Shown here: in pieces, positions 8,693 through 31,267 of the stretch
How positions within the stretch are numbered: the first letter of the stretch is position 1
Layout of the letters: the number at the start of each line of letters is the position of its first letter
Assembly (NCBI GenBank): GCA_021650915.1
Contig: CP091279.1
Location: 3,360,001 to 3,392,000, forward strand
Direction: 5' to 3'
DNA: 32,000 nucleotides
Origin: Candidatus Brocadia sp.
GTDB taxonomy: Bacteria > Planctomycetota > Brocadiia > Brocadiales > Brocadiaceae
Translations under genes and position numbers: made by a program
Notes under the pieces: model-generated
Databases searched by the model: none
The model's input: the letters and a program-made list of their open reading frames with translations, nothing else
Told to the model about the DNA's origin: nothing

Positions 8693-8769
8693 TTCAGAAG
8701 TTTCGCGCAATACAGAGGTTCCGTCGGTCCATTTTTATGGTATTCTACGCTGGAGGAAAGAATTAAGTC

Positions 8770-11226
8770 ATGAAACTGAAAACAACCATTATCCTTTTAA
8801 TTGTTGCCGCTATCGGTATTTCGTACGTCTTCCTTTACGAAAAGAAACAACTCCCCCAGGAAGAATGGGAACGGCTGCAAAAAAAAGTGTTGCCTGACTT
8901 TAAGGCGTCAATGATCAAAAAAATTGAATTGAACAATGAGGGTGGCAAGGTTATTCTGGAAAAGACCGCGGATAATTACTGGCATATCACAGAGCCCCTC
9001 AAGCTCCGTTCAGATAATTCTGAAGTCAACAGTATCCTCTCCGAGTTTGAATTTATGAATAAGGTTGGCTCGTTCAGCCAGGAAGGGGATAAGCCGTTTG
9101 ATCTCAAAGATTATGGTCTGGATGCCCCCACGATCTCCATTACCATGTACACCGACATCCCGGCAAAGCCTGATAAGATTCAGGTAATGGGACCGAAGGA
9201 TAAATATACGGTATTTGTTGGCAAAAAGCTTGCTGCCGGCGATAATGTGTATATAAAACTCGATGCAAGCGATGAGGTTGTGGTCGTGCCGGGCACCCTT
9301 CTTGGAAAAGTTACGAAAAATGTCCTTGATTTACGCAGTAAATGGGTGTTTGCCTTTGACAAGGATGCGGTAGAAAAGATTGAGGTGAAAACGGCAGACT
9401 ATCATATCGTTTGTGACCGGAAGGGCAGTTTCTGGCGTCTCTCTGAGCCGGTGAACGATTTGGCAGATCTGGAAAAAGTCCGGGACGTCCTTGGCAAGTT
9501 AAAGAATCTGCAGATAGACCGTGCCGACTTTATTACGGAGGATTCATCGGATTTAACGAAATTTGGGCTGGATAACCCCCGCTTTACCGTTACTCTTTAT
9601 GAAAAAGGAGTTTCGCAATCTGTTCTTTTCGGGCACTCTTTGGATAATAAGGTCTATGCGAAACGCACGGATGAACCTACAGTCTTTTTTCTGAAAGATA
9701 CGATTCTTGCAGATTTGAGCAAAAGACCAAACGACCTGAGAGACAGAAAGGTTGTGCGGTTCGATTCGATAGGAACCTACGGGATAAACAAATTGGAGAT
9801 CAAGACACCAGGCGACCTCATTACTATTGAAAAGACTTTGGATCTGGACTGGAAGCTTACCAAGCCCGTTAATATTTATGCAGACCAGGACACGGTTAAG
9901 AATTTTATTGAAAAGCTGAAAACCCTTGAGATAGAAGATTTTGTTTCGGATGCGCCAGCAGATTTATCCGCGTATGGTTTAAAAAACCCCGTCTTTGAGA
10001 TATCCGTCACCAAAGAGGAAGACAAGGAATTGGCTAAATTTTACGTGGGCAATATGTTGTCTGACGGCTCCAAATGTTACGTAAAACGCGTTGGAGAGGA
10101 ACCGGTATACACCGTTCCCACAACTGAATTCTATGACAAGATTGAGAATCCGCTCCTGCGTTTCCGCGACAGGCTGGTATGTGATTTTAACAAGGATTTG
10201 GTAAAAAAACTGGTTATTGAAAAACCGGACCGCACCTTTGTCTGCGATATAACAAACAGAAGAGATGCGGAAGGTCAATTCCAGTGGGAGCTCTCAAGGC
10301 CTGTTCAAACAATTGCGGACACAAATGCGATAAACCAGATTATATGGGACATGTCTTTTTTAAAGGTGGACAGCTATATTGTCAAAGCCCCGAAAGATCT
10401 GAAACCCTTCGGTTTAAATGACCCGAGGATCAAGGTGTCGGTAACCTATGAGAAGGCGCCAGAGACACCACCGGAAGAACAGGGTCAAAACAAGAAAGAG
10501 GAAAAGGCAGAAACCGGAGAAAAAGCAAAGGAATCTCTGGAAAAAATCGTTGAAACGAGGACGTTGCTTATTGGCAAAAAGCTTAAGGATGGCGATAAGG
10601 TTAGCTCCTATGGCATGTTTGCGGACAGTGATCTGGTGTTTGAGCTTCCCTGGCCCAAGATCAATAATCTGGATGCTGAATTGGCGCCAACCAGGATACT
10701 GAATTTTGAAAGAACGGACGTAAAAGAGCTAACGTTGAACTACAACGAAAGAACCATCTCGTTAAAAAAAATAAATAATGTCTGGAAATTAAAAAATGAT
10801 GAACAGAAGGAAGTCCAGGGACGAGAAGTGGATTACTTTATTCGCTCTTTGAATGAATTAAAAGGGAATTACATCGAACAATATAAAACAACAAACCTGA
10901 CGCAATTTTCGCTGGATAAACCACAGGCAATAATCACTATCGGATTGGAAGGCGGGGATGCCGTGCTGTATGTCGGAAAGAAGAAAGACACAGACGGCTA
11001 TTACCTGAAAAACAAAGATTCTGATTATATCTATGTCGTTGGCAACGAATCGGTTGCTAATCTGATAAAAAAGGAAGAAGATTTTACCACCTTGATTCAT
11101 GAAGCGATGCCGCAAATGTCCGGCGAAGAAGCAAAGGCGACAATGGATGAAATGTCCCTGGGTACTGCTCCGCATGTCCCACACGGGAAGCCGCCCAAGA
11201 GTTCCCCGCATGGTGGATTTCACTAA
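8770..11226 (+). CDS. Large DUF4340-like repeat protein (five tandem modules), N-terminal membrane anchor, His-rich C-terminus
   Basis: 818 aa with an N-terminal TM segment ('TIILLIVAAIGISYVFL'). The motif pair 'W.L.EP....AD...V...L..L' and 'DL..(F/Y)GLD.P...(V/I)' recurs five times. It occupies the position normally taken by a DUF4340 protein after GldG. Confidence 0.75.
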   Translation: MKLKTTIILLIVAAIGISYVFLYEKKQLPQEEWERLQKKVLPDFKASMIKKIELNNEGGKVILEKTADNYWHITEPLKLRSDNSEVNSILSEFEFMNKVGSFSQEGDKPFDLKDYGLDAPTISITMYTDIPAKPDKIQVMGPKDKYTVFVGKKLAAGDNVYIKLDASDEVVVVPGTLLGKVTKNVLDLRSKWVFAFDKDAVEKIEVKTADYHIVCDRKGSFWRLSEPVNDLADLEKVRDVLGKLKNLQIDRADFITEDSSDLTKFGLDNPRFTVTLYEKGVSQSVLFGHSLDNKVYAKRTDEPTVFFLKDTILADLSKRPNDLRDRKVVRFDSIGTYGINKLEIKTPGDLITIEKTLDLDWKLTKPVNIYADQDTVKNFIEKLKTLEIEDFVSDAPADLSAYGLKNPVFEISVTKEEDKELAKFYVGNMLSDGSKCYVKRVGEEPVYTVPTTEFYDKIENPLLRFRDRLVCDFNKDLVKKLVIEKPDRTFVCDITNRRDAEGQFQWELSRPVQTIADTNAINQIIWDMSFLKVDSYIVKAPKDLKPFGLNDPRIKVSVTYEKAPETPPEEQGQNKKEEKAETGEKAKESLEKIVETRTLLIGKKLKDGDKVSSYGMFADSDLVFELPWPKINNLDAELAPTRILNFERTDVKELTLNYNERTISLKKINNVWKLKNDEQKEVQGREVDYFIRSLNELKGNYIEQYKTTNLTQFSLDKPQAIITIGLEGGDAVLYVGKKKDTDGYYLKNKDSDYIYVVGNESVANLIKKEEDFTTLIHEAMPQMSGEEAKATMDEMSLGTAPHVPHGKPPKSSPHGGFH

Positions 11227-11420: not shown

Positions 11421-12812
11421 TTGAAAAGAATACCTCTCTTTTGTTCAATCTTTTTAACGATCATTTGCCCTCCTTTTTTATTTCACGGGGTATTTGCCCG
11501 TGAAACCACCTCCAATCGCAGAACCCCCACGGTTATAGCCGTTGAAAAGGTAGGACCTGCGGTGGCCAATATCAGCACCGAGCGACTGATTACCGCACGG
11601 CACGCAGATCCGTTTTTTGGATCGAGAAGCGAGCTCTTTGACCAGTTTTTCAATGATTTTTTTGGCCAGGGTCAGAAACAGACGGTTGAAAGACCCTTGG
11701 GCTCCGGTGTCATCATCGACGAAGATGGTTACATCGTTACCAACGAACATGTGGTAAGCCGCGCATCAAAGATCAAGGTACGATTATCGGATGGCAAAGA
11801 TTTCGAGGCTTCCATGATCAGCTCTGACCCAATCAGCGATCTTGCCGTATTAAAGATAAATTCACCCACACCGCTTCCCTACGTTAAGATGGGGACATCA
11901 AAGGACCTCATGATTGGGGAATCTGTTATAGCATTAGGGAACCCCTTTGGCCTGGAAAATTCTATTACAACCGGTGTATTAAGCGCGAAAAACCGTACCC
12001 TGACATTTAACAGCGAGTACGGTGACATTAAGTACGACGGCCTTATACAAACGGACGCACTGATAAATCCGGGAAACAGCGGAGGCCCCCTCATCAATAT
12101 TGACGGAGAACTGATTGGCATTAATGCCGCCATTGTAAATCAGGCGCAAGGGATAGGGTTTGCCATCCCCGTTGACAAGGTAAGACAAACCCTCGTTAAA
12201 CTCTTCAATTTCAGAGAACTCAATAAGATTTGGTTTGGCGCACAGGTTGAGGAGCAGGATGATAGTTCGAAGGGTATTAAAGTTTCATCGATTGAGCCGG
12301 GAAGCCCGGCCGATAAGGCACGAATCAAGGTGGGGGATTATATCACAAAAATAGACTCGAAAGAGATCCTGGATATCCTTGACTTTGAAAAATACATCCT
12401 CAGGAAGAATGCCGGTGATAAGCTGTCTATTCATATTAATCGCGATGGGAGTGAGTTCAAGGTTGACGTTAAACTGGAAAAGGCGCCGCTCCCTTCCATA
12501 GAAAAACTTGCGCTGGAAAAGCTGGGTTTGTATGTGCAGGATTTGACTCCGCAACTTGCAAAACAATTAAAACTGTGGTGGCTAAAGAGCGGGGTATTAA
12601 TTTCGGGTGTGCAAAAGAACAGTCCCGCTGCCGAAGTAGGGATAAAAGAAGGCCATGTGCTCGTGTATGTTGGCCAATATCGGATTAATGACGTCGAAGA
12701 GCTCAGCGCTTTGCTAAAGATCATGCAAAAGGGTGACGTCTGGGAGGTGGGTATCGTCTGGTCTGATAAACTTGGAGAACACCAGGGCTATGCCAGGATA
12801 AAAATCCGATAA
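11421..12812 (+). CDS. htrA: HtrA/DegP-family periplasmic serine protease with two PDZ domains
   Basis: It has a signal-peptide-like N-terminus, catalytic 'TNEHV' (His) and 'GNSGGPL' (Ser), and two PDZ-like segments. The only in-frame start I can see is TTG at 11421. Confidence 0.88.
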   Translation: MKRIPLFCSIFLTIICPPFLFHGVFARETTSNRRTPTVIAVEKVGPAVANISTERLITARHADPFFGSRSELFDQFFNDFFGQGQKQTVERPLGSGVIIDEDGYIVTNEHVVSRASKIKVRLSDGKDFEASMISSDPISDLAVLKINSPTPLPYVKMGTSKDLMIGESVIALGNPFGLENSITTGVLSAKNRTLTFNSEYGDIKYDGLIQTDALINPGNSGGPLINIDGELIGINAAIVNQAQGIGFAIPVDKVRQTLVKLFNFRELNKIWFGAQVEEQDDSSKGIKVSSIEPGSPADKARIKVGDYITKIDSKEILDILDFEKYILRKNAGDKLSIHINRDGSEFKVDVKLEKAPLPSIEKLALEKLGLYVQDLTPQLAKQLKLWWLKSGVLISGVQKNSPAAEVGIKEGHVLVYVGQYRINDVEELSALLKIMQKGDVWEVGIVWSDKLGEHQGYARIKIR

Positions 12813-12869: not shown

Positions 12870-14785
12870 CAAAAATCCATATCTCTTAGCTGGTAGGAAG
12901 GAGGCGAATCGCCTCCAACCCCCAATCGTCGCCAGATACTTTGGACAACGTGACAAAGTATCCTTTTAAACCATACGGCTTTCCCGTAGTTAGCGACCCC
13001 ATAGTGTTGCTCTGGAGCAGAGAAAAGTAACCTATCATGCCTTTGCACGTGCCTTAAGAAATTCTCTTTCAAATGAGAGTAACCCCATCTTAAAGAATCG
13101 GTGTACCGGGAAACGTTTGTTGTCAGTTTTCCATTTTCTCGAAAACTTGAAACTTCTCAGTCTCATGCGTACCCAGCAGTCTAACGAGCGATATACCGTT
13201 TGTACATTGCCCAGCCGAAAATAGTTGACATGTCCCCTTATGACAGGATTTAATGTATCAATGACGGCTTGCAGGTTGACGCCTTGTGTGCGTTTGGTGA
13301 TGTCTCTGACGGCGTCCTTGAGTTTGTCCAGGGATTTCATGCTTACACCCTTGTTCTTGCCCATGAAATTATATCCGAGAAACCGGAAGCCTCGTTTGAA
13401 GTTGGTGAGCCTGGTTTTATCCTCGCTCAGCTTCATTTCAAGTTTCCCTTCGATGATTTCTTTGACGTACTGAAGGGCGGCAGGGAGTTCTTCTTTCGTT
13501 TTAGTCATGACAACGAAGTCATCGGCATAGCGGACAAATTTATATCCTGCCTTTTCAAGCTCCTTGTCGATGATGTCACCGATAAGGTTTGCAAGCAAGG
13601 GAGATATGACGCCTCCTTGCGGAGTGCCTTGATTTGTCTCATGCACGATGCCGTCCTCCATGACCCCTGCCTTGAGCATGTTCTCGATACTGTTCAACAC
13701 CCATCCGTCAGCGATTTTCTCACGCAAGGAGTTCATGATAAGCTTATGAGGTATGGTGTCATAGAACGCCTTTATATCGGCGTCCAAAATGTTCCGATAC
13801 CCTTGCTGCTTATACTGTTCAATCCGTTTGATAGCATCATGACAGCATCTGTTTGGACGAAATCCAAAGCTGTTATCCGAGAATTCTTTCTCGAATATTG
13901 GCTCTATGATTTGTCTGAACGCTTGCTGTACTACCCTGTCCTTGACAATGGGAATGCCAAGAGGTCTCTTGTCATGCCTGCCTTTGGGAATGTAGACCCT
14001 TAAGACGGGCGCAGGGTTGTATATGGCGGTTTTCAGTTCCTTGTGAACAGCTTGTAGATTATTCTCAAGGTCACTTTCAAACTGCTTAATACTTACCCTG
14101 TCGAGACCAGCCTTGCCTTTATTCTTCTTTACGTGCCCAAAAGCCGCATAAAGGTTTCTCAGACTGAATACCTTGTCTCTTAAAGAATGATACTTAAGCA
14201 TCTCCCGATATGTTCCTTTTGATTGATTCCGGATAATAGACTTGTCAATCGTGTTTCCTGAGTCGAGATTCCTCCTGACAGAGGCAAAACAAGAGAGGCT
14301 CTTGCTACTACTTGCCCATGCAAAGAGTCTCTTTTCTCATGGAACGTATTCAATCTACCACGTTTCATCAACTCCACTACGGTTATGCCCCTTCATTCCT
14401 GGCTTACACCAGAAACTATTATGAGCGCTGCTGACGACTTCAAAGACAGACCTGTGAGAGCCAGTCGTCCGTCACCATCTCATACAGCTTGGATTTCGGA
14501 TTTCCCTTATACCTCGCTGTTAGGGAATTTCTTCCCAAGACGTAAGTCCTCCCCCGGTCATATGGATTACCCCTTTTCCCTTCGTGATGTATGTTCAAAC
14601 GCATTATCCAGAGATGTTTTCACCTGGTCTCTTTTGACATCTCCAACAAGGACATTGTCAGTGCTTCACTGAGAAAGGGCAGTTGGCACGAACTAACACG
14701 CCATACTCATACACCCCAAAAGGTCGTCTGTACCTCGTAACTCCGTCATACCCCTCACGGGAATACGCTATCCTTCTACGCACAC
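12870..14785 (-). mobile_element. Group II intron (about 1.9 kb, boundaries approximate) in an intergenic site
   Basis: An RT/maturase ORF lies inside. On the minus strand, GUGUGCG at 14785-14779 fits the 5' GUGYG consensus (start at 14785 or 14783). It is followed by a CCC-GUGA-GGG GNRA hairpin about 580 nt upstream of the ORF start, the usual D1-D3 length. A domain V-like 'AGCCGUAUGG' string lies at 12980-12971, about 55 nt after the ORF stop. I could not fold D5/D6 cleanly, so the 3' end is only placed between 12870 and 12930. Confidence 0.7.
13035..14201 (-). CDS. Group II intron reverse transcriptase/maturase (no endonuclease domain)
   Basis: 388 aa. RT blocks are 'RPLGIPIVKDRVVQQA', 'FGFRPNRCCHDA', 'ILDADIKAFYDTIPH', 'GTPQGGVISPLLAN' and 'YADDFVV'. 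The maturase X region reads 'LNPVIRGHVNYF'. The ORF ends without an HNH domain. Confidence 0.92.
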   Translation of the reverse strand: MLKYHSLRDKVFSLRNLYAAFGHVKKNKGKAGLDRVSIKQFESDLENNLQAVHKELKTAIYNPAPVLRVYIPKGRHDKRPLGIPIVKDRVVQQAFRQIIEPIFEKEFSDNSFGFRPNRCCHDAIKRIEQYKQQGYRNILDADIKAFYDTIPHKLIMNSLREKIADGWVLNSIENMLKAGVMEDGIVHETNQGTPQGGVISPLLANLIGDIIDKELEKAGYKFVRYADDFVVMTKTKEELPAALQYVKEIIEGKLEMKLSEDKTRLTNFKRGFRFLGYNFMGKNKGVSMKSLDKLKDAVRDITKRTQGVNLQAVIDTLNPVIRGHVNYFRLGNVQTVYRSLDCWVRMRLRSFKFSRKWKTDNKRFPVHRFFKMGLLSFEREFLKARAKA

Positions 14786-19977: not shown

Positions 19978-20492
19978 GGTATTGCCTGGTTCTGCAGAAT
20001 TCGGAAGTCGGAATTCAGGATGAAAATGAAACCGATTCACGCCACCTGGTTGCCCCGACTCCTGATTCCGCCGGCGCCGTTCTGATTCCTCAAACCTGCA
20101 AGGAATGAGGCGTGAACAGCATATATTCGGCATCTTCAGTCTATGTTTCCCCGCAGGTTGTATGACGGCGTCCAAGGCCTCTTCAAATTTCCCGGAGACT
20201 TCTTTGTAAACATCCGGCGCTTTTATGCCCTTCAGGTGCATCTGATATGTAAGATAAGATAAGATAGAACGCGCCGCCGATGACGGCAACTCCCTGTGCC
20301 CCTGGTTGACGTGCCTCGGAAAATGCAGTTTTGGTTGGTACTACGGTGGCAGAAACTTCTTCATTGCATCTCAATTCCTTACAAGAATCCCTGGCGTGAC
20401 ATTACAGCAAAAATTTATACCTCCCCGGGCAACAGAGGCATTGCCGGTAAGCATCTCCCGTATCCATGCTGCAAGTATTTTCCTCTCAAGCC

Positions 20493-21302
20493 CTAAATTT
20501 CGAATAAATTCCCCTGTCCCACGTTATCTAAATTGCCCTGATCCATGACCAATGGGTAGTGCAACATCCAGCTCGTAAATATCCCCAGAATGATCGATAT
20601 TACAAAGCTGATCATGGTGCCGATTAATATGTATTCTGCTTCCTTCCGGCCTTTCAGTGTCCGGGTTTCACCAAATCGCAGGATGGATTTTGCGGCGATC
20701 AGGAACCCAATGGCCTCAAAGTGGTTGAGCAGAATAAAGGTCAGAATCAAGACCCGTTCCAGGCGCCCAATCCATAGTCCGGCCTTCTCCAGGCCCTGGA
20801 AAGGGGTTTCTTTGGTTATTTCACTCCGCCATGGTTTGGTAATTTTGCCGATCAGGGCGCCGGCCGGCCAAATTACCAGAATATAGGCCAGTATGACGGT
20901 CCAAAACCGTACGCTTGATGTAAAGGTGAACAGAAATAAAACAATATCCGATAACGTGCCAGGGATCAATAATATCCAGCAACCTAAGATGATAATACCA
21001 TGTCCCAGGTGATCCAGCGCGAAAAATCGGGCGGTATCTTCTCCCTGAGGCTTTAATGCGTCCCGTAAAACGTGTGCAATAAAAATAACAAACGGGAGCC
21101 ACAGGGCATTCCAGATGCCTGCAAGGGTATAGGCGAGCGCCCCGGCGCATATCCCGTGCAGATAGAGCCAGCAAGACCGCCATGTATTCCCTGGCCACTG
21201 CTCCATTTTGGAATCCTGTTGCAGGAAAAAGTCTGCAACCACGTGGGCCACGACAAGACGGAGGAGCAACGATATATCGCTTTGACTCAACGGATGGTAC
21301 AT
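20493..21302 (-). CDS. DUF3307-family (SatE-like) polytopic membrane protein
   Basis: 269 aa. The N-terminal 'LLLRLVVAHVVADFFLQ' is the DUF3307 signature, and there are multiple TM segments with conserved His residues. The start ATG overlaps the SatD-like stop (TAATG). Confidence 0.65.
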   Translation of the reverse strand: MYHPLSQSDISLLLRLVVAHVVADFFLQQDSKMEQWPGNTWRSCWLYLHGICAGALAYTLAGIWNALWLPFVIFIAHVLRDALKPQGEDTARFFALDHLGHGIIILGCWILLIPGTLSDIVLFLFTFTSSVRFWTVILAYILVIWPAGALIGKITKPWRSEITKETPFQGLEKAGLWIGRLERVLILTFILLNHFEAIGFLIAAKSILRFGETRTLKGRKEAEYILIGTMISFVISIILGIFTSWMLHYPLVMDQGNLDNVGQGNLFEI

Positions 21303-22009
21303 TATAAGCTCCTGTACTTATTTTTATCCATTATAAGCCTCTGTGCTTCCTTTTCCCGGATTACCTGTTCATATCGCTGGCACCACTTCTCGATAGCCCA
21401 GCTACCGGCGCTTTTTAAGCGTTGACGGACCGCTGGCTGGGAAACGCCGAATTCCCTGGCAGCCTTTTCCTGGGTTAAACCCCTGATCCGGCCAAGTATT
21501 GCCTGTGCCTGTTCGCCGGACAACCGGCTTATCAGGGCATCGAGCAGGGCGCATGCTGCGTCCAGTTCTCCATCAACCTCTTGCCACGGAGTCCTTATTA
21601 ACAGTCGCTGGTCGCCCTTCATCTCATCTAAGGTCTGCCCGGAGCGGCGAAAAGCCTCGCCGTCCCCTTCAGATCCACGGCTGGCAGGAAGAAAGTCGAT
21701 GCGCCCAATCCCCACGGCAATCCGTGCATCCAGTGCATGGCGGCGTTGTTTTGTTTCAAAACCGTGGCGCAGACTGGTGCGGATGGCGATTGCTACCCGT
21801 AGCGCTGCATCCGGCCTGGATAGCACCCCCTGAAAACTATCTCCACGGTGAATTTCAAAGGGTGCGCGTATTCCATCAGGCAGGAGATTTTTAATGGTAG
21901 TAAACGAAGATTTGAGAACCAACAATAAACATCTCCGCTGGCTGGTCGTGAGTTTTGATGATCCGACGATGTCTCCGGTTACAACCGCATACAGAGCGTT
22001 CTTTCTCAT
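21302..22009 (-). CDS. SatD-like protein: N-terminal cyclase-like/palm-like domain + C-terminal sigma-70 region-4-type HTH
   Basis: 235 aa. The N-terminus reads 'YAVVTGDIVGSSKL', '..HRGDSFQGV..' and 'ARIAVGIGRI'. The C-terminus reads 'GLTQEKAAREFGVSQPAVRQRLKSAG' (HTH). The family assignment is from memory of SatD (Streptococcus mutans sat operon) features. Confidence 0.6.
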   Translation of the reverse strand: MRKNALYAVVTGDIVGSSKLTTSQRRCLLLVLKSSFTTIKNLLPDGIRAPFEIHRGDSFQGVLSRPDAALRVAIAIRTSLRHGFETKQRRHALDARIAVGIGRIDFLPASRGSEGDGEAFRRSGQTLDEMKGDQRLLIRTPWQEVDGELDAACALLDALISRLSGEQAQAILGRIRGLTQEKAAREFGVSQPAVRQRLKSAGSWAIEKWCQRYEQVIREKEAQRLIMDKNKYRSL

Positions 22010-22066
22010 GCCCTTCTTCTCCGTGTGTTTTTGAAATAATAAGGCTGCATCATGATATGCACAGTA

Positions 22067-22086
22067 TATAAGCCTTAGGGCTTATA
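22067..22086. promoter_or_regulatory. Perfect palindrome TATAAGCC-N4-GGCTTATA inside a putative promoter of the SatD-like operon
   Basis: On the minus strand the sequence reads TTGCTT-(16/18 nt containing the palindrome)-TATATA/TATACT, 58-77 nt upstream of the SatD-like ATG at 22009. Confidence 0.4.
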
Positions 22087-22287
22087 AAGCAAGAGAATAC
22101 TGGCACAGGGCGGCAAAGATCCGGATAAATCGCCCGCAAAGGGATCTTTTGTAAAACCGGGGTTTGAAGAGAAGCGATATCCGCGAAAAATGGGTAAAAA
22201 TACTTGAGACGACACGCACCAAATTCGGGGCACATGTTTACGCGGTTACCCGCGGTACGCGTGCGCTTTTATTTCGGCGACACGGCG

Positions 22288-23691
22288 CTATGTCTGGTCG
22301 TTGGCGGAAGGCGTAGTTTTGGCTATGTTGTGTTTGATAAGCTTGTTTTGAAGGGTTGTGCGGGGAATCCGCAGGATTTCTGACATCCGCACCTGGTTTC
22401 CCTGCGTCTTCTGATATGCCCACAGAAGGAGCTTTCTTTCCGCATGACTCAGCGTATCCTGCAAGTCCAGCGAGTCAATGGTGGAAAGTTCCAGGGAAAA
22501 TAAGCCCGAAGGGGTCTCTTCTTCCCGCACGTTTTCCGGGAGGTCTTTCGTCATAATCTCACCAGAGGTGCAAAATGCGATTGCATGTTCCATCGCATTT
22601 TCCAATTCACGGATATTTCCCGGCCAGTGATACCGTGACAACAGCCAAAGCGCTTCCTGAGATACCGAGTGAACCGCGGCATGCTGCTGTGCGGCATACT
22701 TTTTCATAAAGTAATTTACGAGGAGCGGTATATCTTCTTTCCTTTCCCGCAAAGGCGGGAGGTGGATAATGACCACGTGGAGCCGGTAATAGAGATCCTC
22801 GCGAAAGCGTCTCTCCCGGACAAGTTTTTTCAGGTCCCTTTTGGTAGCGCAGATGACGCGGACGTTGACGGCGATAGCCTCCTCCCCACCAACGCGTTCA
22901 AATTCCCTTTCCTGAAGAACCCTGAGCAGTTTAACCTGCATTTCCAGGGGGATGTCATCTACGTCGTCAAGAAATATCGTTCCCCCGTTGGCGAGTTCAA
23001 AACGGCCACGCCTCATCTTTATCGCACTGGTAAAAGCGCCTTTCTCGTGTCCGAAAAGCTCGCTTTCCAGAATTTCCTTGTTCAGGGCAGCGCAACTGAG
23101 TTTGATAAAAGGGCTGTCTTTTCGCGGGCTGTTGTAATGAATCGCCCCAGCCGTAAGCTCCTTTCCGGTGCCGCTTTCCCCCTGAATAAGCACCGTAGTA
23201 TCACGATGGGACACGATGTTTATCATTTCAAACACGTGTTTCATTGCGTCGCACTTTCCAATCATATTGTCGTAGCCGTACTGGCTGAGGATCTGCTGTT
23301 TCAGCAAGAGATTTTCCGCAACCACGTCCTTGTGTCTGAGCGCCTTCTGGAGTTTGATTATCAACTCTTCCAGAGAAAAGGGTTTTGTTACGTAGTCGTA
23401 AGCCCCTTCTTTCATCGCCATAACTGCATTTTCAATGGAACCATAGGCGGTCATAATGATAACTACGGTATCAGGAGACGATTTTTTAATCTCCTTCAGA
23501 AACTCTATGCCATCCATCTTCGGCAGGCGCAGGTCGGTTATTACGGCATCGAAGTTTTCCGATTGCATGACCCTGAGGCCTTCGATGGCATTTGACAGGG
23601 AAGTGACCGTATATCCCTCTCTTCTTAACTTATCCTCAAGGGATACCCGCATCAGTTTTTCGTCATCGACAATAAGGATGTTGTTTTTCAT
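22288..23691 (-). CDS. Sigma-54-dependent response regulator (NtrC family: REC + AAA+ + Fis-type HTH)
   Basis: REC domain: 'ILIVDDE', 'DAVITDLRLPKMDG'. AAA+ domain: 'GESGTGKE' Walker A, 'GAFTSA' (GAFTGA variant) and 'GGTIFLDDVDD'. The C-terminal HTH reads 'RMSEILRIPRTTLQNKL'. I prefer the ATG at 23691 (MKNNILIVDD), which forms an ATGA overlap with the kinase stop. Confidence 0.9.
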   Translation of the reverse strand: MKNNILIVDDEKLMRVSLEDKLRREGYTVTSLSNAIEGLRVMQSENFDAVITDLRLPKMDGIEFLKEIKKSSPDTVVIIMTAYGSIENAVMAMKEGAYDYVTKPFSLEELIIKLQKALRHKDVVAENLLLKQQILSQYGYDNMIGKCDAMKHVFEMINIVSHRDTTVLIQGESGTGKELTAGAIHYNSPRKDSPFIKLSCAALNKEILESELFGHEKGAFTSAIKMRRGRFELANGGTIFLDDVDDIPLEMQVKLLRVLQEREFERVGGEEAIAVNVRVICATKRDLKKLVRERRFREDLYYRLHVVIIHLPPLRERKEDIPLLVNYFMKKYAAQQHAAVHSVSQEALWLLSRYHWPGNIRELENAMEHAIAFCTSGEIMTKDLPENVREEETPSGLFSLELSTIDSLDLQDTLSHAERKLLLWAYQKTQGNQVRMSEILRIPRTTLQNKLIKHNIAKTTPSANDQT

Positions 23692-25616
23692 GTTTGATCG
23701 GGAAGGCATATCGTGAAGGTCGTTCCTTCACCGACCTCGCTTTCTATAGTAATGCTGCCGTGATGGTCCTCGATGATCCTCTTTGAGATGGCCAATCCCA
23801 TCCCAAGCCCTTTTTCTCCCATGTTGTTCTTCGTGCTAAAAAAAGGTTCAAAAATCTTTTCCTTAATTTCAGGCTGAATACCGCAACCCGTGTCGCTGAT
23901 ATGAACCGTTACGCATCCTTCATGTTGCTTGCAAATATCCGTCTTTATGGTCAGGGCGCCACCATCCGGCATACTCTCAAGGGCATTTACCATGAGGTTG
24001 ATGAACACCATGGACACGTGGTCTGCATCCACCAAAACAGGCGGCAGGGACGGGTTGAGTTCCTTATGAATGCTTACGTGGCAGGGTTCCGTTTTGTGCT
24101 CAATAAATTCAAGGGAACTGATGATGATCGCATTCGCATCGTTTTCTGCTATCCGAAGGGTGTAGGGACGGGAAAACGTCAGAAGGCGCTTGACGATCAT
24201 CTCAACTCGTTTCAAACCGTCCAGCATAAGCGTGGCGTACTTCTTTGTTTGCAGGGCGTTTCCCGGTTCATTTTCAAGCATGCTTGCAAAGTTTTGCAGG
24301 CCACCTAACGGGTTATTGATTTCGTGAGCCACTTCGGCTGCAAGCTCTCCGACTGCGGCAAGACGCTCTGCCCGTAACAATTGCGTGGTGCGCTCCTCCA
24401 CCTTTTGTTCCAGATTGGTGTAGGATTCCTTCAGTTTCTCCGTCATATGATTAAATTCTCTGGCAAGCAGACCCACTTCATTATCTGAGGCAACCGAGAT
24501 CCGATGGTCAAGATTTCCCGAAGCGATAGCCTTTGCTCCCTGCGCCAGTTGTAAAATCGGTTGCGTGATCCGGCTGGTGAGTGAAATACCCATGGCAATG
24601 ACAATAAGGAGACTAACGAAGATCAGGAGGATAACGCGGCGCTTGAGTTTTTCAACGGGTGCAAACGCCTCCTTCATGTCCTGCTTTGCCACCAGCCCCC
24701 AATTGAGAACGGGGATGTGCCGGTAGGCGGAAAGCACCGGCACGTTGCGATAATCTACCGACTCCTTAATCCCCTCTTCGCCGCCGGAGCTTAATACTGA
24801 GGGAATATCTACGGCAGAGGAAAGGGGACTGACGAATTTCAGGGCAGCCCCGGGCTTGTGACGAAGATCATTGAGATAGACAAGGTTATTCCCTTCCCTC
24901 CTCGCCAGGAGAGTCTCGCCGGTCTCTCCCATTCCCGGCCAGTTACGAATCACCGGCTCGACGCTGTTCTTAACGTTCACATCCAGCAAAATGACGCCAA
25001 TGATAATATCCGTGGTTTCCAGGGTAAGGGAATCAGTCATACAAACGGGACAAAAATAGGTTATGCAGTTCTGGTCGATTAGCTCAGAGGTGTAAATATC
25101 TTTTACCGCCACATCCTTTTTTTCGAGGGTATCGATATAATCGTTAAACGAACTCAGGGTTTTCCCGACGATCCCAGGATAGGTTGATATGACCACCTCA
25201 CCGTTTGCTCCGTCGATGATCGAGATAACGTTGTAGTGCTTATACACCTGTTTCAGGAGATGGAGGTTCTCTAAAATTCTTTCATAATTCACCCGTCCGG
25301 CCTCTGATTTTCTCAACTGATCGATACTTTCAAACCTTCTCCTCTGCTGTAAAAGGGTGGTAGCCGCAGCGGCAAGTATCTTGTTGCGGGCGATTACTGA
25401 GGTATCGATCAATCGTTCGTCAAGCCAGTTGTTGAGTTCATTTTTCTTCAGATCCGCAATAGAGGTCAGTTGTTCAATCACCCGTTGTTCAATGGCATCC
25501 TTGCTGCTGTAATATTCGACCACACACACAAACAGCAAGGGAACGGTGGTCAAGAGACAGATGGAACAGATGAGCTGTATTTGAATGCTCTTGAAGATAT
25601 TTTTGTAGTACTTCAT
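23688..25616 (-). CDS. Sensor histidine kinase (TM - large extracytoplasmic Cache-like domain - TM - HAMP - HisKA - HATPase)
   Basis: 642 aa with two TM segments flanking a ~290-aa domain. HAMP reads 'ASGNLDHRISVASDNEVGLLAREFNHM', the H-box reads 'AHEINNPLGG', and the ATPase boxes are 'NLMVNALESM', 'DTGCGI' and 'GLGMGLAI'. Confidence 0.88.
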   Translation of the reverse strand: MKYYKNIFKSIQIQLICSICLLTTVPLLFVCVVEYYSSKDAIEQRVIEQLTSIADLKKNELNNWLDERLIDTSVIARNKILAAAATTLLQQRRRFESIDQLRKSEAGRVNYERILENLHLLKQVYKHYNVISIIDGANGEVVISTYPGIVGKTLSSFNDYIDTLEKKDVAVKDIYTSELIDQNCITYFCPVCMTDSLTLETTDIIIGVILLDVNVKNSVEPVIRNWPGMGETGETLLARREGNNLVYLNDLRHKPGAALKFVSPLSSAVDIPSVLSSGGEEGIKESVDYRNVPVLSAYRHIPVLNWGLVAKQDMKEAFAPVEKLKRRVILLIFVSLLIVIAMGISLTSRITQPILQLAQGAKAIASGNLDHRISVASDNEVGLLAREFNHMTEKLKESYTNLEQKVEERTTQLLRAERLAAVGELAAEVAHEINNPLGGLQNFASMLENEPGNALQTKKYATLMLDGLKRVEMIVKRLLTFSRPYTLRIAENDANAIIISSLEFIEHKTEPCHVSIHKELNPSLPPVLVDADHVSMVFINLMVNALESMPDGGALTIKTDICKQHEGCVTVHISDTGCGIQPEIKEKIFEPFFSTKNNMGEKGLGMGLAISKRIIEDHHGSITIESEVGEGTTFTICLPDQT

Positions 25617-25624
25617 AAACCGCT

Positions 25625-26041
25625 TTACTTAAGGAGCAATATGCCGCCCAGAATAAGCAACACGCCTACTGCCTTGGACAGGGTAATCTCTTCGCCCAGA
25701 AAAATCCAACCCAAAAGGAAAGAAAATACGGGATAGCAGCAGGTAACGGGGATAATCTTTGATATCTCACCTGTCTTGAGCGCCTTGTAAAATACCAGTT
25801 GTGCCACAACACCCGCCAGAATACCGGCAAGGACAAGAAAAAAAATGGCCTTGATCCCCATTTTCCCAAAAGAGGGAAACTGAGGGGTAAAAGCGATCAG
25901 AATTACGACACCCAGGAAGACGCCCGAACATCGTATCAGGTATGCGGCGGTTGGCTCAACTGATGAGAGGCCGACCTTCTCTAAAAAGGGTACAAATCCC
26001 CAGATAAAGGCCGTCAGTAAGGCAAGGAAAAACGCTTCCAT
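25625..26041 (-). CDS. Small EamA/DMT-superfamily membrane protein (single EamA domain)
   Basis: 138 aa with 4-5 hydrophobic helices and an EamA-like C-terminus 'LGEEITLSKAVGVLLILGGILLL'. It sits 8 nt upstream of the kinase gene on the same strand. Confidence 0.65.
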   Translation of the reverse strand: MEAFFLALLTAFIWGFVPFLEKVGLSSVEPTAAYLIRCSGVFLGVVILIAFTPQFPSFGKMGIKAIFFLVLAGILAGVVAQLVFYKALKTGEISKIIPVTCCYPVFSFLLGWIFLGEEITLSKAVGVLLILGGILLLK

Positions 26042-26600: not shown

Positions 26601-29404
26601 ATGATTAATCAAACGCCCGAACAAATAGCGCGAGACCTTATTGACAAGCAACTCACTGCCTGCGGCTGGCTTATTCAGAAAAAGAATCAGGTTAATCTTC
26701 ACGCAGGAATTGGAGTTGCAGTTCGTGAGTATCTGACTGATGCGGGGGTAGCCGACTATGTTCTGTTTGTTGATGAGAAACCCGTTGGTGTTATTGAAGC
26801 CAAGCGTGAGGAAGAAGGACACCGCCTCACCATACATGAAATCCAATACATGAAATCCAATCCGAAGGATATGCCTCGGCAAAACTCAAATACCTGAATA
26901 ACGAAAAACTCCCCTTTGTGTATGAAAGCACAGGGGAAGTGACCCGGTTCACCGACTTCAGAGACCCCAAACCACGGTCAAGGCCGGTATTTTCCTTTCA
27001 CCGCCCGGAAACCTTTCGTGAGTGGCGGAAGAGATCAAAATCGTTCCGTGGTAGCTTGTCTGACCTACCCGCGCTGCCCGTCGAAAGACTGCGTGATTGC
27101 CAAGTTACGGCCATTAACAACCTTGAAACATCCTTCAAGGATAATCGCCCAAAGGCATTGGTTCAGATGGCAACGGGCTCCGGGAAAACCTATACCGCCA
27201 TCACGTTTATCTATCGTTTACTGAAATACACCCATGCAAAACGCATATTGTTTCTGGTTGACACCAAAAATCTGGGCGAACAGGCAGAACAGGAGTTCAT
27301 GGCGTATCAGCCAAATGATGACAACCGCAAGTTCACCGAGTTGTATGGTGTATATCGCTTGAAATCAAGCAACATTCCTACTGACAGCCAGGTTTACATC
27401 AGCACTATCCAACGTTTGTATTCCATTCTGAAAGGAACGGAACTGGAAGAAGGCGCCGAGGAAGAAAATCCGAATGAGAGAAGTTGGCAGCCGAAAGAAG
27501 TCCCGCCCGTCGAATACAATGAAAAACTGCCGGTTGAATTCTTTGATGTTGTGGTGATTGACGAATGCCACCGTAGTATTTACAACCTGTGGAAACAGGT
27601 GCTGGAATACTTTGACGTCTTCCAGGTGGGATTAACCGCAACACCTGACCAACGCACGGTGGCCTACTTTGATCAGAACCTGGTCTCGGAATATTCCCAC
27701 GAAATAGCCGTGGCCGACGGCGTGAATGTAGGTTACGATGTGTTTCTTATTGATACACGAGTCACCCAACAGGGCGCTACCTTCTGGAAAGGCGTGTATG
27801 TGGAGCACCGTGAACGATTGAACAGGAAGAAACGGCTGGAGTTGCAGGATGAGGATGAGGCATACACCGCACAGCAGTTGGACAGGGACGTGGTGAACCC
27901 GAATCAAATCCGCACGATTATTCGTACGTTCAAGGAACATTTGCCCGAAATATTTCCCGATCGCTACAATGGGGAGGGTGAATTTGAAGTGCCCAAGACA
28001 CTCATCTTTGCCAAGACCGATTCCCACGCTGACGACATCATTCAGATTGTCCGTGAGGAGTTTGCCGAAGGAAATCATTTCTGCAAAAAAGTGACTTACA
28101 AGGCAGTCGAAGACCCAAAGTCGGTGCTGGCGCAATTCCGCAACGAGTACCACCCGAGGATTGCCGTTACGGTTGACATGATTGCCACCGGCACGGATGT
28201 GAAGTCATTGGAATGTCTGCTTTTCATGCGTGACGTAAAAAGCCGGAATTATTTTGAACAGATGAAAGGCAGGGGCACACGGACCGTTCCCTTTGATGAC
28301 CTGAAAAAGGTTTCACCTTCGGCCAAATACACCAAAGACCATTTTGTGATCGTGGATGCCATCGGCGTTACCAGGAGTTTGAAAACCGACAGCCGTCCGT
28401 TGGAAAAGAAGCCCGGCGTGCCCTTAAAAGACTTGCTGGCAGCCATTGCCGTAGGCGCGCGGGAGGAAGAGTTGTTTACTTCCGTTGCCAACCGCTTGAC
28501 ACGCCTGGAAAAACAGATTACCGACAAGGAGAAAATACAATTTTCTGCAAAGGCCAACGGCAAAACCGTTACGCAGGTGGCAAAGGAATTATTGAATGCC
28601 TTCAATCCCGATACCCTGGAAGATTTACGTGCGAGGGTAGAACGCGAAAATCCCGGAGCAGCGCCCGTTGTGAAGGAAGAAAAATACAATCACCTGCAAG
28701 CTGAATTGCAGAACAACGCAGCTAAGGTATTTACCGGTGAGTTGAATGAATATATTGAAAATGTACGCAAGGCACATGAACAGAAGATTGATATGCAGAA
28801 TCCCGATACCGTAATCAATGTGGGCTGGAACAGCGACAACAAGACAAAGGCGGAAACCCTGGTGCGGGATTTTAAGGCGTGGATAGAGCAGCACAAGGAC
28901 GAAATCACTGCCTTGCAGATTTTTTATGCGCAGCCATATCGCAGGCGTGAACTCACCTACGCCATGATGAAAGAGGTGTTAGAAAGATTGAAGACTGAAA
29001 AGCCCGTCCTTGCGCCCATGCAGGTGTGGCGCGCCTATGAGCACCTGGATGCTGTAACAAGCGCAGCACGAGGCAGCCCGCGGAATGAGCTGATTGCGTT
29101 GGTCTCCCTGATCCGTAAAGTTTCAGGCGTTGACAAGACACTGACGGCTTACGACAAAACCGTGGACAAAAATTTTCAGAGCTGGGTGTTTAAGAAACAG
29201 GCAGGCGCATTGAAGTTTACGGAAGAACAGATGCAATGGTTGCGGATGATAAAAGACCACATCGCCACCAGCATCCACCTTGATGCCGACGACCTGGATT
29301 ACACACCCTTCGATGCCGCCGGTGGCAAGGGAAAGATGTATCAGCTCTTTGGCGACAGGATGAATGAGATTATTAACGAACTCAATGAGGCATTGGCGGC
29401 ATAA
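26601..29404 (+). pseudogene. hsdR: Type I restriction enzyme R subunit (EcoEI/IB-like C-terminus), frameshifted by a 14-bp tandem duplication
   Basis: The N-terminal PD-(D/E)xK nuclease ('ADYVLFVDEKPVGVIEAKRE') is in ORF 26601-26897. The helicase part ('MATGSGKTYT', 'VVIDECHRS', 'GLTATP', 'QMKGRGTR') and an EcoEI_R_C-like tail are in ORF 26918-29404. Removing one 14-bp unit joins the two frames. Confidence 0.88.
26832..26861 (+). repeat. 14-bp perfect tandem duplication (ACATGAAATCCAAT x2) causing the hsdR frameshift
   Basis: Bases 26834-26847 are identical to 26848-26861, and the identity extends 2 nt to the left. The duplication re-encodes 'IHEIQ' in the second frame. Confidence 0.95.
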
Positions 29405-29513
29405 TGATTGACAGAAATCCCGTAGCGTGATTTGGGTTTGTAACCAGCAACCAATAGTTTGTCTGCCAGCAACATCGGAAATTCAAAGTGGATAAATGTA
29501 GAGCTGGCAGTAC

Positions 29514-29760
29514 AATCCCGAAGGGATGACATGATTATAACAAGGTAAAATAAAATTGTATTTGAATCCCGGAGGGATGACACAAATCATTTCACCCCTT
29601 CGGGGTTGTGTGGTGGCGGTGGTTGGTTTTCTATAATCATTACACACCTTCGGTGTTTAATATATGCCATAAATTAAGCAGCAAAGCCCGAAGGGCTGAT
29701 ATTATTATAGGAAAACGAGAAAAAGAAAATTAATAAACCCTGAAAGGGTGATATAAATAT
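29514..29760. repeat. REP array between hsdR and hsdS: composite element copy 2 (29514-29658) plus two further REP variants
   Basis: A forward REP lies at 29514-40 and a forward variant at 29565-90. A CCCC-TTCG-GGGG hairpin is at 29595-605, and a reverse variant at 29631-58. Further forward variants are AAGCCCGAAGGGCTGATATTATTATAG at 29684-710 and AAACCCTGAAAGGGTGATATAAATAT at 29735-60. Confidence 0.8.
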
Positions 29761-31267
29761 GGTTGACAGAAAACAAATACCGCCAAGTTGGGAAGTTGTG
29801 AAACATAGTGAAATTGCAGAAATAAATCCTAAACTTCCTTTTAAAAATATTGATGACAACACCGAAGTTTCATTTCTTCCAATGAAATTAGTTGAAGAAG
29901 AAAAAAATATTTTCTATCTCACTGAATTCAGAAAATACAAGGATGTAAAAAAAGGTTTCACCCCATTTACAAATGGTGATGTGATTTTTGCAAAGATTAC
30001 GCCGTGTATGGAGAACGGAAAATGTGTCGTTCTACATGATCTTAAAAATGAAGTTGGTTTCGGTTCAACGGAGTTTCATGTTTCACGACCAAGAGAATGT
30101 GTCATCGCTAAGTACATTTTTTATTCCATTATTCAACAGCAATTCAGAAGAATTGCAGAAAGTAATATGACTGGCAGTGTAGGACAGAAAAGAGTTACAA
30201 CGCTATTTTTTTCCGAGTTTGAAATTCCTCTTCCCCCTTTCCCCGAACAACACCGCATTGTTTCCAAAATAGAAGAACTCTTCAGCGAATTAGACAAAGG
30301 CATTGAAAGTTTAAAAACCGCCCATCAGCAACTCAAAATCTACCGTCAGGCCGTGTTGAAGTGGGCTTTTGAAGGAAGGTTGACCGAGGAATGGAGAAAA
30401 GAAAACTCAATTTTAAATACAGCCTATGACTATTTAAGACAAGTATCGGAAATACGTAAGAAGAATTTTTTAGAAGCTAAGAAAAATGGTATAAAGAGGA
30501 TTGAAAAAAATTATGATTTTGAATTTAGACGAAGTGAGGAAATAAAAACTTGGGCAAATGCCACTTTGAATAAATTAATCTACATAGCGGGTAGAATAGG
30601 ATGGAGAGGTTTAACAAAAGATGAATACACAATTGAAGGCCCAATGTTTTTGAGTGTGCATTCACTTAACTATGGAAAGTATGTAGAGTTTAAAGACGCT
30701 TATCATATTTCCGAAGAAAGGTATTTAGAAAGTCCAGAGATAATGCTTAAAGAAAAAGATATATTGCTTTGTAAAGATGGTGCAGGTATTGGTAAAATTG
30801 GCATCATTAATAAACTTCCATCGGAGGCAACGGTAAATTCCTCTTTGCTTATAATAAGAGGCATGGAAATATTTATCCCGGAGTTTTTATATCATCTGCT
30901 AAGTGGACCTAAGCTACAGGGTATAGTACGAAAACGAATCACCGGAAGTGCTACTCCTCACTTATTCCAAAATGATATTAGAAAATTTGAACTTCTTATT
31001 CCTCCCCTTGAAGAACAACATCAAATTGTTTCAGAAATAGAAACCCGCCTTTCCGTATGCGATAAATTGGAAGAAACCATAACAACCGCCTTGCGGCAAG
31101 GCGATGCCCTGCGGCAGAGTATTTTAAAAAAGGCATTTGAGGGAAGGCTGGTTGAGCAAGACCCCAATGACGAACCGGCATCAAAACTCCTGGAGAGGAT
31201 AAAGGCAGACAAGGTAAAGGGTATGACAAAGGATGATACACGAAAGAAGAAAATCCCGAAGGGATGA
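29759..31267 (+). CDS. hsdS: Type I restriction-modification specificity subunit (two TRDs)
   Basis: 502 aa. The two conserved coiled-coil spacers are 'PEQHRIVSKIEELFSELDKGIESLK...LKWAFEGRL' and 'EEQHQIVSEIETRLSVCDKLEE...LKKAFEGRL'. Each follows a variable target-recognition domain. Confidence 0.9.
   Translation: MVDRKQIPPSWEVVKHSEIAEINPKLPFKNIDDNTEVSFLPMKLVEEEKNIFYLTEFRKYKDVKKGFTPFTNGDVIFAKITPCMENGKCVVLHDLKNEVGFGSTEFHVSRPRECVIAKYIFYSIIQQQFRRIAESNMTGSVGQKRVTTLFFSEFEIPLPPFPEQHRIVSKIEELFSELDKGIESLKTAHQQLKIYRQAVLKWAFEGRLTEEWRKENSILNTAYDYLRQVSEIRKKNFLEAKKNGIKRIEKNYDFEFRRSEEIKTWANATLNKLIYIAGRIGWRGLTKDEYTIEGPMFLSVHSLNYGKYVEFKDAYHISEERYLESPEIMLKEKDILLCKDGAGIGKIGIINKLPSEATVNSSLLIIRGMEIFIPEFLYHLLSGPKLQGIVRKRITGSATPHLFQNDIRKFELLIPPLEEQHQIVSEIETRLSVCDKLEETITTALRQGDALRQSILKKAFEGRLVEQDPNDEPASKLLERIKADKVKGMTKDDTRKKKIPKG

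Follow-up and report, generated by a model that had tools for sequence, protein, structure and literature searches.

We analyzed a stretch of 32,000 nucleotides from Candidatus Brocadia sp. (contig CP091279.1, positions 3,360,001 to 3,392,000), referred to here as the window, in which all coordinates are counted from the first letter. Two overlapping genes on its minus strand encode a SatD-like protein and a polytopic membrane protein of the DUF3307 family. We propose, with a probability of about one half, that this pair forms a self-contained, self-repressed operon, in which the SatD-like protein would be a ligand-switched autorepressor that gates a membrane effector, with a logic resembling that of toxin-antitoxin systems. 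The proposal builds on the structure of the two genes, the fold and conserved residues of the first protein, the pairing of the genes across genomes, and the position and specificity of a palindrome.

The satD-like gene (21302..22009, minus strand) encodes 235 amino acids (aa), arranged as a palm (i.e. cyclase-homology) domain, a helix-turn-helix (HTH) of the sigma-70 region-4 type, and a long C-terminal helix. The second gene (20493..21302, minus strand) encodes a SatE-type protein of 269 aa, whose assignment as a polytopic DUF3307 membrane protein follows from Pfam, an AlphaFold2 (AF2) model, and hydropathy. An earlier interpretation made from the letters alone (the sequence-only reading) had placed both open reading frames (ORFs) at these coordinates, in agreement with the ORF list, and the peptides it had singled out (AVVTGDIVGSSKL, HRGDSFQGV, ARIAVGIGRI, and GEAFRRSG) were all found in the 235-aa protein. 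The overlap it had reported, in which the satD-like stop codon and the DUF3307 ATG share TAATG, was likewise seen in the window sequence. The start codon of the satD-like gene is backed by homologues of 235 aa at 100% coverage.

The Pfam family SatD (PF16264) matched the 235-aa protein over nearly the whole profile (positions 1-196 of 211) with 25.5 bits (E = 1.2e-5), i.e. below the gathering score of 29 bits. In an alignment of 59 SatD-like homologues (A1), which was the basis of the AF2 model and the profile searches, 58 sequences matched PF16264 (best E = 2.7e-14), and most database homologues carry a precomputed match to this family. The window protein thus appears to be a divergent SatD member whose own score falls under the cut-off. 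The second half of the protein matched Sigma70_r4_2 with 28.9 bits (cut-off 25.7; aa 155-199), and the 269-aa protein matched DUF3307 (PF11750) with 48.3 bits (gathering score 23; aa 12-113). An NCBIfam profile search of both proteins returned nothing beyond the Pfam result. The databases held 1057 and 1333 homologues of the SatD-like and the DUF3307 protein, respectively, and 4324 clusters at 50% identity matched the SatD-like profile; the matching features of the two proteins lie far beyond chance expectation. Nearest homologues came from Candidatus Brocadia and related anammox Planctomycetota (77-96% identity).

A genome scan with one genome per species yielded 276 relatives of the SatD-like protein, and the analysis of the 80 best loci and the window covered 81 sequences with 852 kb in total. 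These 80 loci belong to Planctomycetota, Bacteroidota (including Balneolaceae and Lentimicrobiaceae), Clostridia, Acetothermia, Omnitrophota, Latescibacterota, and archaea, the last including Methanoperedens, ANME-2, Methanosarcinales, and Methanothrix. A DUF3307 gene lay directly downstream on the same strand in 71 of 75 informative loci (the five others stop at a contig edge), with a median gap of 28 nt and 14 overlapping pairs. The four exceptions comprise two solo genes (L021 and L037), a frameshifted copy (L071), and a fusion of SatD to tetratricopeptide repeats (TPR; L074). Identity matrices of the two proteins were correlated with a Mantel r of 0.86 (permutation maximum 0.13). Distant copies of less than 45% identity were collected by tblastn, namely 12 records of a plasmid collection and one viral contig. 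Twelve of these 13 loci displayed the same gene order, with an upstream protein matching the A1 profile (E = 1e-8 to 2e-46); pairs were found in Segatella, Vibrio, Sphingomonas, Salinivibrio, Pseudoalteromonas, Fusobacterium, E. coli, Klebsiella, Enterobacter, and Pseudomonas. The A1 profile failed to detect the protein encoded upstream in the Bacillus locus L086, in which the motifs are no more than similar. Co-inheritance of the two genes, on which the sequence-only reading depended, was thus borne out, and SatD-DUF3307 is a real, widespread two-gene cassette.

No third conserved gene was found among the loci. The next commonest neighbor encodes an ABC-F ATPase (15 of the 81 sequences), and other shared neighbors, e.g. 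those for GroEL or a glycosyltransferase, reflect synteny within lineages. The Brocadia copies are about 50% identical to those of ANME and Methanoperedens, i.e. across domains of life, which points to a spread of the pair by horizontal transfer. In the Bacteroidales and Lentimicrobiaceae loci, GroEL is encoded downstream on the opposite strand. In L040, L041, L048, L050, L051, L059, L061, L064, and others, only a few bases separate the satD-like start from a preceding ABC-F (EttA-like) gene, and because of this short distance the two genes are probably co-transcribed in Bacteroidales and Lentimicrobiaceae.

The HTH of the window protein (aa 155-201; 21407..21547, minus strand; recognition helix GVSQPAVRQRLKSAG) was recognized by Sigma70_r4_2, Sigma70_r4, and other HTH models; with Sigma70_r4_2 above its cut-off, the C-terminal region-4-type HTH named in the sequence-only reading stands. 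The protein was rejected as a sigma factor, since it matches region 4 alone, lacks region 2, and consists in its N-terminal half of the palm domain; NCBIfam sigma models scored far under their cut-offs. In a recurrent variant (P0304, P0305, P0308, and L074, 470-2065), the SatD-like protein carries C-terminal TPR repeats, and in L074 the DUF3307 gene is not next in line.

Alignment of the regions upstream of the Brocadiales copies surfaced a shared palindrome, ATAAG-N8-CTTAT, a putative operator. In the window, a perfect 18-bp copy (O1, 22068..22085; extended arms TATAAGCC/GGCTTATA, 22067-22086) lies 76 nt before the satD-like ATG, between the −35-like and −10-like hexamers of a putative sigma-70-type promoter identified by eye (TTGCTT, 22087-22092; 18 nt; TATACT, 22063-22068; minus strand). 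A degenerate site retaining 8 of 10 arm bases (O2, 22039..22056) is located 29 nt downstream of O1. The other perfect copy (J1, 21304..21321) falls within the last satD-like codons, ends 1 nt before the DUF3307 ATG, and covers the AGGAG ribosome-binding site of the DUF3307 gene. It, too, has a degenerate companion with 8 of 10 arm bases (J2, 21333..21350), 29 nt upstream of J1 at position −48. According to a pattern search, the 32-kb window contains exactly two perfect copies, both in the module.

Across the 852 kb, 84 exact copies were counted: 54 just upstream of satD-like genes, 26 at the junction of the two genes, and four elsewhere. Junction copies are fixed at −19 or −48 from the DUF3307 ATG, successive sites are 28-29 nt apart, and the palindrome occurs in bacterial as well as archaeal loci, the −48 junction position being occupied in archaea too. 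Upstream of satD-like genes it was present in 32 of 78 loci, compared with 0.3 in shuffled controls. When the spacer of TAAG-Nx-CTTA was varied from x = 4 to 12, enrichment was seen at x = 8 alone (72 upstream and 26 junction sites vs. eight elsewhere); other spacers gave 0-1 sites near the module and 2-15 elsewhere. Since the 32 kb contain only two perfect sites and the 852 kb only four stray ones, the regulon appears to be limited to the operon itself. In L024, L032, and L039, a copy with one mismatch (ATAAG-N8-GTTAT) sits in the spacer of a consensus promoter (TTGACA-17-TATAAT). An RNA hairpin or riboswitch was rejected: the folding z-scores of the two regions were unremarkable (−1.2 and −1.4), complementarity of the 8 inner nucleotides is not maintained at the junction sites, and Rfam gave nothing, all of which makes a protein-DNA site the better explanation.

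The presence of the palindrome correlated with the type of recognition helix. All site-bearing loci encode either SQ[PSA]A.xQRLK, with a few R, Q, or V variants at the last two positions, or SQAAVHYRVK; the latter is the helix of Balneolaceae, in which the site is a TTAAG variant. Loci with the helix xKR[LI]..AN are mostly devoid of the palindrome, and most of them offer no promoter region to inspect, because the satD-like gene directly abuts the ABC-F gene. A search for an alternative palindrome in these 'KR'-helix loci revealed no clear common site, only a hint of an ATAAC/GTTAT variant. In Candidatus Methanoperedens nitroreducens (L037, 6001-6700), a solo satD-like gene keeps a perfect palindrome at its 3′ end; persistence of the junction site where the DUF3307 gene is missing looks like a recent loss of the partner.

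The palm domain spans aa 7-139 (21593..21991, minus strand), as delimited by AF2 secondary structure, Foldseek, profile matches, and conservation. The AF2 model of the SatD-like protein was confident (predicted local distance difference test, pLDDT, 93.8; predicted template modeling score, pTM, 0.92) and displays a core of beta-alpha-beta-beta-alpha-beta-beta-alpha-beta topology, followed by a helical half with the HTH and a terminal helix of 30 residues. The 50 best Foldseek matches in the PDB were solely class III cyclases (adenylyl, guanylyl, or uridylyl) or GGDEF domains (E about 1e-4, probability 1.00, target-normalized TM up to 0.58). They include Ma1120, CyaC, Rv1625c, Rv1900c, and soluble guanylate cyclase, as well as the Pycsar uridylate cyclases 7r65 and 8jsz. 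Profile comparisons agreed independently: among class III cyclases, A1 matched 3mr7 with E = 4.5e-5 and Ma1120 with E = 0.002, and its comparison with aligned Ma1120-like cyclases by hhalign gave E = 1.8e-4. On the strength of the model and these matches, the N-terminal domain can be confidently assigned to the class III cyclase/GGDEF-type palm fold, as the sequence-only reading had supposed. One JGI record labels a SatD-like homologue 'class 3 adenylate cyclase', and the assignment may already be implicit in databases.

Invariant residues in A1 are T11-G12-D13, R55-G56-D57-x-F59-Q60, D94-x-R96, G100, G102, G115, G117, and S123-G124, and A119 is also among the conserved residues of the domain. 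In both profile alignments, D13 and D57 align to the two metal-binding Asp of cyclases, and R96 to the phosphate-binding Arg of the cyclase R-I-G-I-H strand. Conservation was assessed with 149 representatives of the 50%-identity clusters: among those aligned, 144 of 145 have D13 and 147 of 147 have D57, while the position of R96 holds R in 143 and K in 4. The two metal-binding Asp residues proposed from the sequence are therefore near-invariant. At the position of the substrate-specifying Lys, four residues before the second Asp, the window protein has I53, and the representatives have I, V, M, L, or F. The HMMER and hhalign alignments to cyclases end at residues 103-104, before the segment with the specificity Asp and the Asn/Arg; by eye, R121 occupies the position of the transition-state Asn and is variable (R 85, Q 19, H 11...). 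Because the Lys position is hydrophobic, the Asn/Arg segment unalignable, and R121 variable, the SatD-like protein is not a canonical cyclase. Pfam Guanylate_cyc (PF00211) did not match the window protein at E up to 1 and was missing from the 25 families that the 59 homologues matched most frequently. No Pfam match to GGDEF was obtained, the hairpin equivalent to GG[DE]EF reading R-G-D-S-F-Q. When the fetched loci were searched by motif for canonical cyclases that might serve as an alignment partner, none was found. The cyclase-like interpretation is therefore correct as far as the fold and the metal site are concerned; catalytic activity is putative.

Structure prediction for the second protein gave an all-helical model (pLDDT 82.7), and hydropathy indicates about eight or nine hydrophobic helices. 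The Pfam domain (aa 12-113; 20964..21269, minus strand; 48.3 bits) accounts for about four membrane helices, and the C-terminal 155 residues are without a Pfam match. Intramembrane His/Asp motifs of the DUF3307 domain include H20xxxD24, H77xxxD81, and D97-H-x2-H101 (D97-H/Q-x2-H101 across homologues). For this subfamily, the claim of conserved His residues holds in part: conservation is at least 90% at H101, and H20, H49, and H77 occur widely, but some close relatives of the window protein lack these motifs. The most conserved segment lies elsewhere, at aa 166-245 (GLEKAGLWIGRLER...AAKSILRF...RKEAEY...; 20568..20807, minus strand), with a mean column identity of 0.74 compared with 0.57 and 0.51 in the other parts. 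Most invariant residues fall in this module, for which no Pfam, NCBIfam, or PDB match was found. No PDB relative of the whole protein was detected by fold (best E = 0.31, TM below 0.3) or by profile. In the viral structure library BFVD, the sole match was a phage protein of 128 aa that consists of DUF3307 only and covers the N-terminal domain alone; SatE-type proteins thus combine a four-helix DUF3307 domain with a further module.

Under the proposed autorepression, the SatD-like protein, probably a dimer, would use its C-terminal HTH to bind ATAAG-N8-CTTAT. Occupation of one to three copies in its own promoter would occlude the promoter and repress transcription. The protein would also sit on one or two copies that cover the DUF3307 start and its ribosome-binding site, where it could be a roadblock or else affect an internal promoter or the initiation region. 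With sites both in the promoter and over the DUF3307 start, production of the membrane protein would be under double control. The palm domain keeps the Asp-Asp-Arg triad, i.e. the residues that hold nucleotide triphosphate and metal in cyclases, and would most likely bind a nucleotide together with metal and thereby switch DNA binding, whether as a sensor or as an enzyme that is slow and non-canonical. The DUF3307 protein would be the output and is probably harmful when unregulated, resulting in an addiction or stress-switch logic.

Several observations suggest such harm: the double operator control, the order of the genes with the regulator first and translationally coupled, the site kept at the solo gene of L037, the presence of the pair as plasmid cargo, and the status of satD in S. 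pyogenes. The 3.8-kb ColE1-type plasmids of E. coli (pEC34A, L084) and Klebsiella carry Rop and Mob genes and, as their sole cargo, the pair; complete E. coli RefSeq genomes lack the pEC34A pair. A 4.4-kb plasmid of K. pneumoniae (L090) carries it with Rop, an HTH gene, and a small YdgH/BhsA/McbA-like gene, and hits H16-H21 belong with the small-plasmid copies L084 and L090. On a 10-kb plasmid of P. fragi, the pair lies among toxin-antitoxin genes. In S. pyogenes, satD is reported to be the only 'essential accessory gene', i.e. essential where present and absent from 29% of genomes (PMC11323703).

A number of observations weigh against this scheme. The −35 hexamer of the window promoter is weak, and a promoter scan tool made no call here. 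About half of the loci have no exact site, in part because the satD-like gene follows the ABC-F gene without a spacer, and several loci with the helix type of the window, e.g. L005, L010, and L014, lack an exact site within 200 nt upstream. A factor other than SatD could bind the palindrome. Nucleotide binding is an extrapolation from the Asp-Asp-Arg triad, given the absence of the cyclase Lys and Asn/Arg. SatE has been detected in vesicle proteomes of S. mutans, so it is expressed under some conditions. Finally, the context of the pair in Brocadiaceae is one of syntenic housekeeping genes (rdgB-rph-arg), which is as compatible with a physiological function on the chromosome as with an addiction module.

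Among the alternatives, the membrane protein might serve as input instead of output, sensing an envelope cue and holding or releasing SatD in the manner of an anti-sigma factor or Mlc-PtsG. Translational coupling through TAATG and strict co-inheritance are typical of interacting proteins with fixed stoichiometry, the natural partners of region-4-type HTHs include membrane anti-sigma factors, and the most conserved part of the DUF3307 protein is charged beside membrane helices, plausibly forming a cytoplasmic docking face. Operator-like sites placed exactly on the DUF3307 start are left unexplained by this arrangement, however, as is the role of the invariant palm residues for metal and phosphate; moreover, among 150 representatives no SatD-DUF3307 fusion occurred, the fusions found being to TPR repeats. 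We consider such a sensor pair unlikely.

A pair akin to Pycsar or CBASS is less probable still. SatD would here be an active cyclase whose product, a cyclic or another nucleotide, directly activates a DUF3307 effector, e.g. in abortive infection, and the HTH would do no more than set the expression level. The layout of a cyclase-fold protein with a membrane partner is that of Pycsar (PycC with a membrane or TIR effector), cUMP synthases (7r65 and 8jsz) are among the fold matches, the Asp pair and the Arg are near-invariant, and the pair occurs on small plasmids. Yet the specificity Lys is always hydrophobic, with the Asn/Arg segment unalignable and R121 variable, and a domain binding nucleotides, cyclic or otherwise, was not recognizable in the DUF3307 protein in Pfam, profile, and fold searches. 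Unlike Pycsar, the pair has a DNA-binding domain and operator-like sites and usually lies outside defense islands: flanks in the 80 loci are housekeeping genes in lineage-specific synteny. Phage carriage was not seen when both proteins were searched by tblastn against 50,697 phage records, and the SatD-like protein was found in 1 of 2.9 million viral contigs. One clear defense-island context was observed among the loci examined, on a plasmid of Sphingomonas insulae (L083, 950-8357), where a TIR-domain gene with an HTH/ImmA-IrrE pair borders the cassette on one side, and Pycsar-like genes (cyclase, E2-associated gene, and effector) flank it on the other. A known defense system was rejected, since in PADLOC the sole match of the SatD-like protein was a 12-bit HTH hit (mad1, E = 0.039) and the DUF3307 protein had none. 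The sequence-only reading had envisaged a regulatory or defense module; its regulatory part is strengthened by the operator-like palindrome, while the defense part gained little support from PADLOC, phages, or flanks.

About equally improbable is a housekeeping stress operon free of toxicity and addiction, in which DUF3307 would be an intramembrane metal-dependent enzyme or transporter, e.g. for acid or ion tolerance, and SatD a metabolite-responsive regulator. The HxxxD, HxxxD, and DQxxH motifs, which recur from Fusobacterium to homologues on enterobacterial and E. coli plasmids, would suit an enzyme of this kind; some close relatives have lost them, however, while the C-terminal module stays invariant. 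The family name derives from the S. mutans sat operon ('secretion and acid tolerance'), yet linkage to ffh or ylxM is absent outside streptococci. The conserved position of the pair next to rdgB-rph-argFDB in six Brocadia genomes favors a housekeeping role, whereas the patchy distribution across domains, with about 50% identity between Brocadia and ANME or Methanoperedens, indicates horizontal transfer. A pair that is the sole cargo of tiny plasmids and includes an 'essential accessory' gene of S. pyogenes (PMC11323703) also fits this account poorly.

Comparison with described systems places the proposed autorepressor pair in context. It resembles SatD/SatE of the S. mutans sat operon in having the regulator-like gene first and the membrane protein second; we take S. 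mutans SatE to be a DUF3307 protein. It differs from the streptococcal operon in its divergent SatD (25.5 bits vs. the 29-bit cut-off) and the missing ffh/ylxM linkage. In Fusobacterium, a SatD-family gene is followed by an overlapping DUF3307 gene, as in the window. With class III cyclases such as Ma1120, Rv1900c, and CyaC, the SatD-like protein shares the palm fold, the metal Asp pair, and an equivalent of the beta-4 Arg; unlike them, it has Ile, Val, or Met in place of Lys, a D-x-FG...VN-x-A-x-R segment that cannot be aligned, no Guanylate_cyc match, and a fused HTH. In mycobacterial proteins of the Rv0386 type, a canonical, active cyclase is part of a large protein that also contains an NTPase domain and a LuxR-type HTH. 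They likewise join a cyclase fold and an HTH in one polypeptide, and the SatD-TPR fusions echo their TPR modules; SatD, however, has about 220 aa and is without the canonical catalytic residues.

The similarity to type II toxin-antitoxin systems comprises (i) a DNA-binding gene in first position; (ii) translational coupling; (iii) palindromes in the own promoter; (iv) occurrence on small plasmids among toxin-antitoxin genes; and (v) a first gene that is an 'essential accessory' gene in S. pyogenes (PMC11323703). In contrast to these systems, SatD is large and has an enzyme-like palm, the partner is a polytopic membrane protein of 240-360 aa, and toxicity is putative. The pair is a variant of cyclase-fold signaling or autorepressor modules, neither a member of a characterized system nor categorically new.

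Both families can be called known but functionally blank, as Pfam catalogues both and the satD-satE order dates to the S. mutans sat operon. The sequence-only statement that neither has an established biochemical function agrees with the literature searched, in which no functional study of SatD or DUF3307 was found. DUF3307 appeared in one phage gene table, 'SatD family' in one annotation paper, and the Pfam and InterPro identifiers of the two families in no paper; satD was discussed solely as an essential accessory gene that lacks an explanation (PMC11323703). Nor did this literature describe the cyclase fold, the operator, or how universal the pairing is.

SatD-like proteins range from anammox bacteria and gut Bacteroidota to enterobacterial plasmids, oral pathogens, and methane-oxidizing archaea. 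The 18-bp putative operator at fixed positions, the invariant palm residues, and the conserved, putatively cytoplasm-facing DUF3307 segment make the pair testable, and the proposed autorepression predicts that satD can be deleted only together with the DUF3307 gene. If true, this dependence could explain the lone 'essential accessory gene' status in S. pyogenes. Should the palm bind or make a nucleotide, the pair would represent a new branch of cyclase-based signaling, next to Pycsar, CBASS, and type III CRISPR, with a new membrane effector fold. A bolder and rather doubtful extension is that SatD-DUF3307 constitutes an unrecognized class of nucleotide-operated genetic switches that spread horizontally through Bacteria and Archaea, in which a minimal, non-canonical palm enzyme or sensor fused to its own repressor makes or senses a nucleotide signal and thereby releases a new membrane effector, as a toxin-antitoxin or abortive-infection system whose 'antitoxin' has a cyclase fold.

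The remaining gene content of the window is ordinary chromosomal, with genes for cysteine and arginine biosynthesis, RNase PH, RdgB, an HtrA protease, an ABC-2 transporter, a two-component system, and type I restriction-modification. Downstream of the pair, rdgB, rph, argF, argD, and argB are syntenic in Brocadiaceae and conserved in six Brocadia genomes, and the upstream flank differs among Brocadia genomes. In L001, L003, and L005, a pyruvate:ferredoxin-oxidoreductase-like gene pair lies between the DUF3307 gene and rdgB; the equivalent position in the window (19978-20492) is a stretch of 515 nt without a convincing gene. The extra gene after DUF3307 in some Brocadia genomes was rejected as a part of the module, as it encodes an unrelated subunit of this oxidoreductase. 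Directly upstream of the satD-like gene and in the same orientation (22288-26041, minus strand) are genes for a half-size EamA protein, a dCache-HAMP histidine kinase, and a sigma-54-dependent response regulator.

Farther from the pair, an ORF at 13035-14201 (minus strand) combines reverse-transcriptase and group II intron maturase domains (RVT_1 and GIIM); Rfam at gathering threshold identified no intron RNA in the window. An ABC-2 type transporter cluster occupies 5328-11226 (plus strand) and consists of an ATPase, a permease, a GldG-like auxiliary protein, and a large DUF4340 protein; the gene for the HtrA-type protease (11421-12812) comes after it. At the other end, the type I restriction-modification genes (26918-31267, plus strand) encode hsdR-like (ResIII, EcoEI_R_C) and hsdS-like (Methylase_S) proteins, and the drop in G+C to 0.36-0.42 past about 29 kb suggests acquired DNA.

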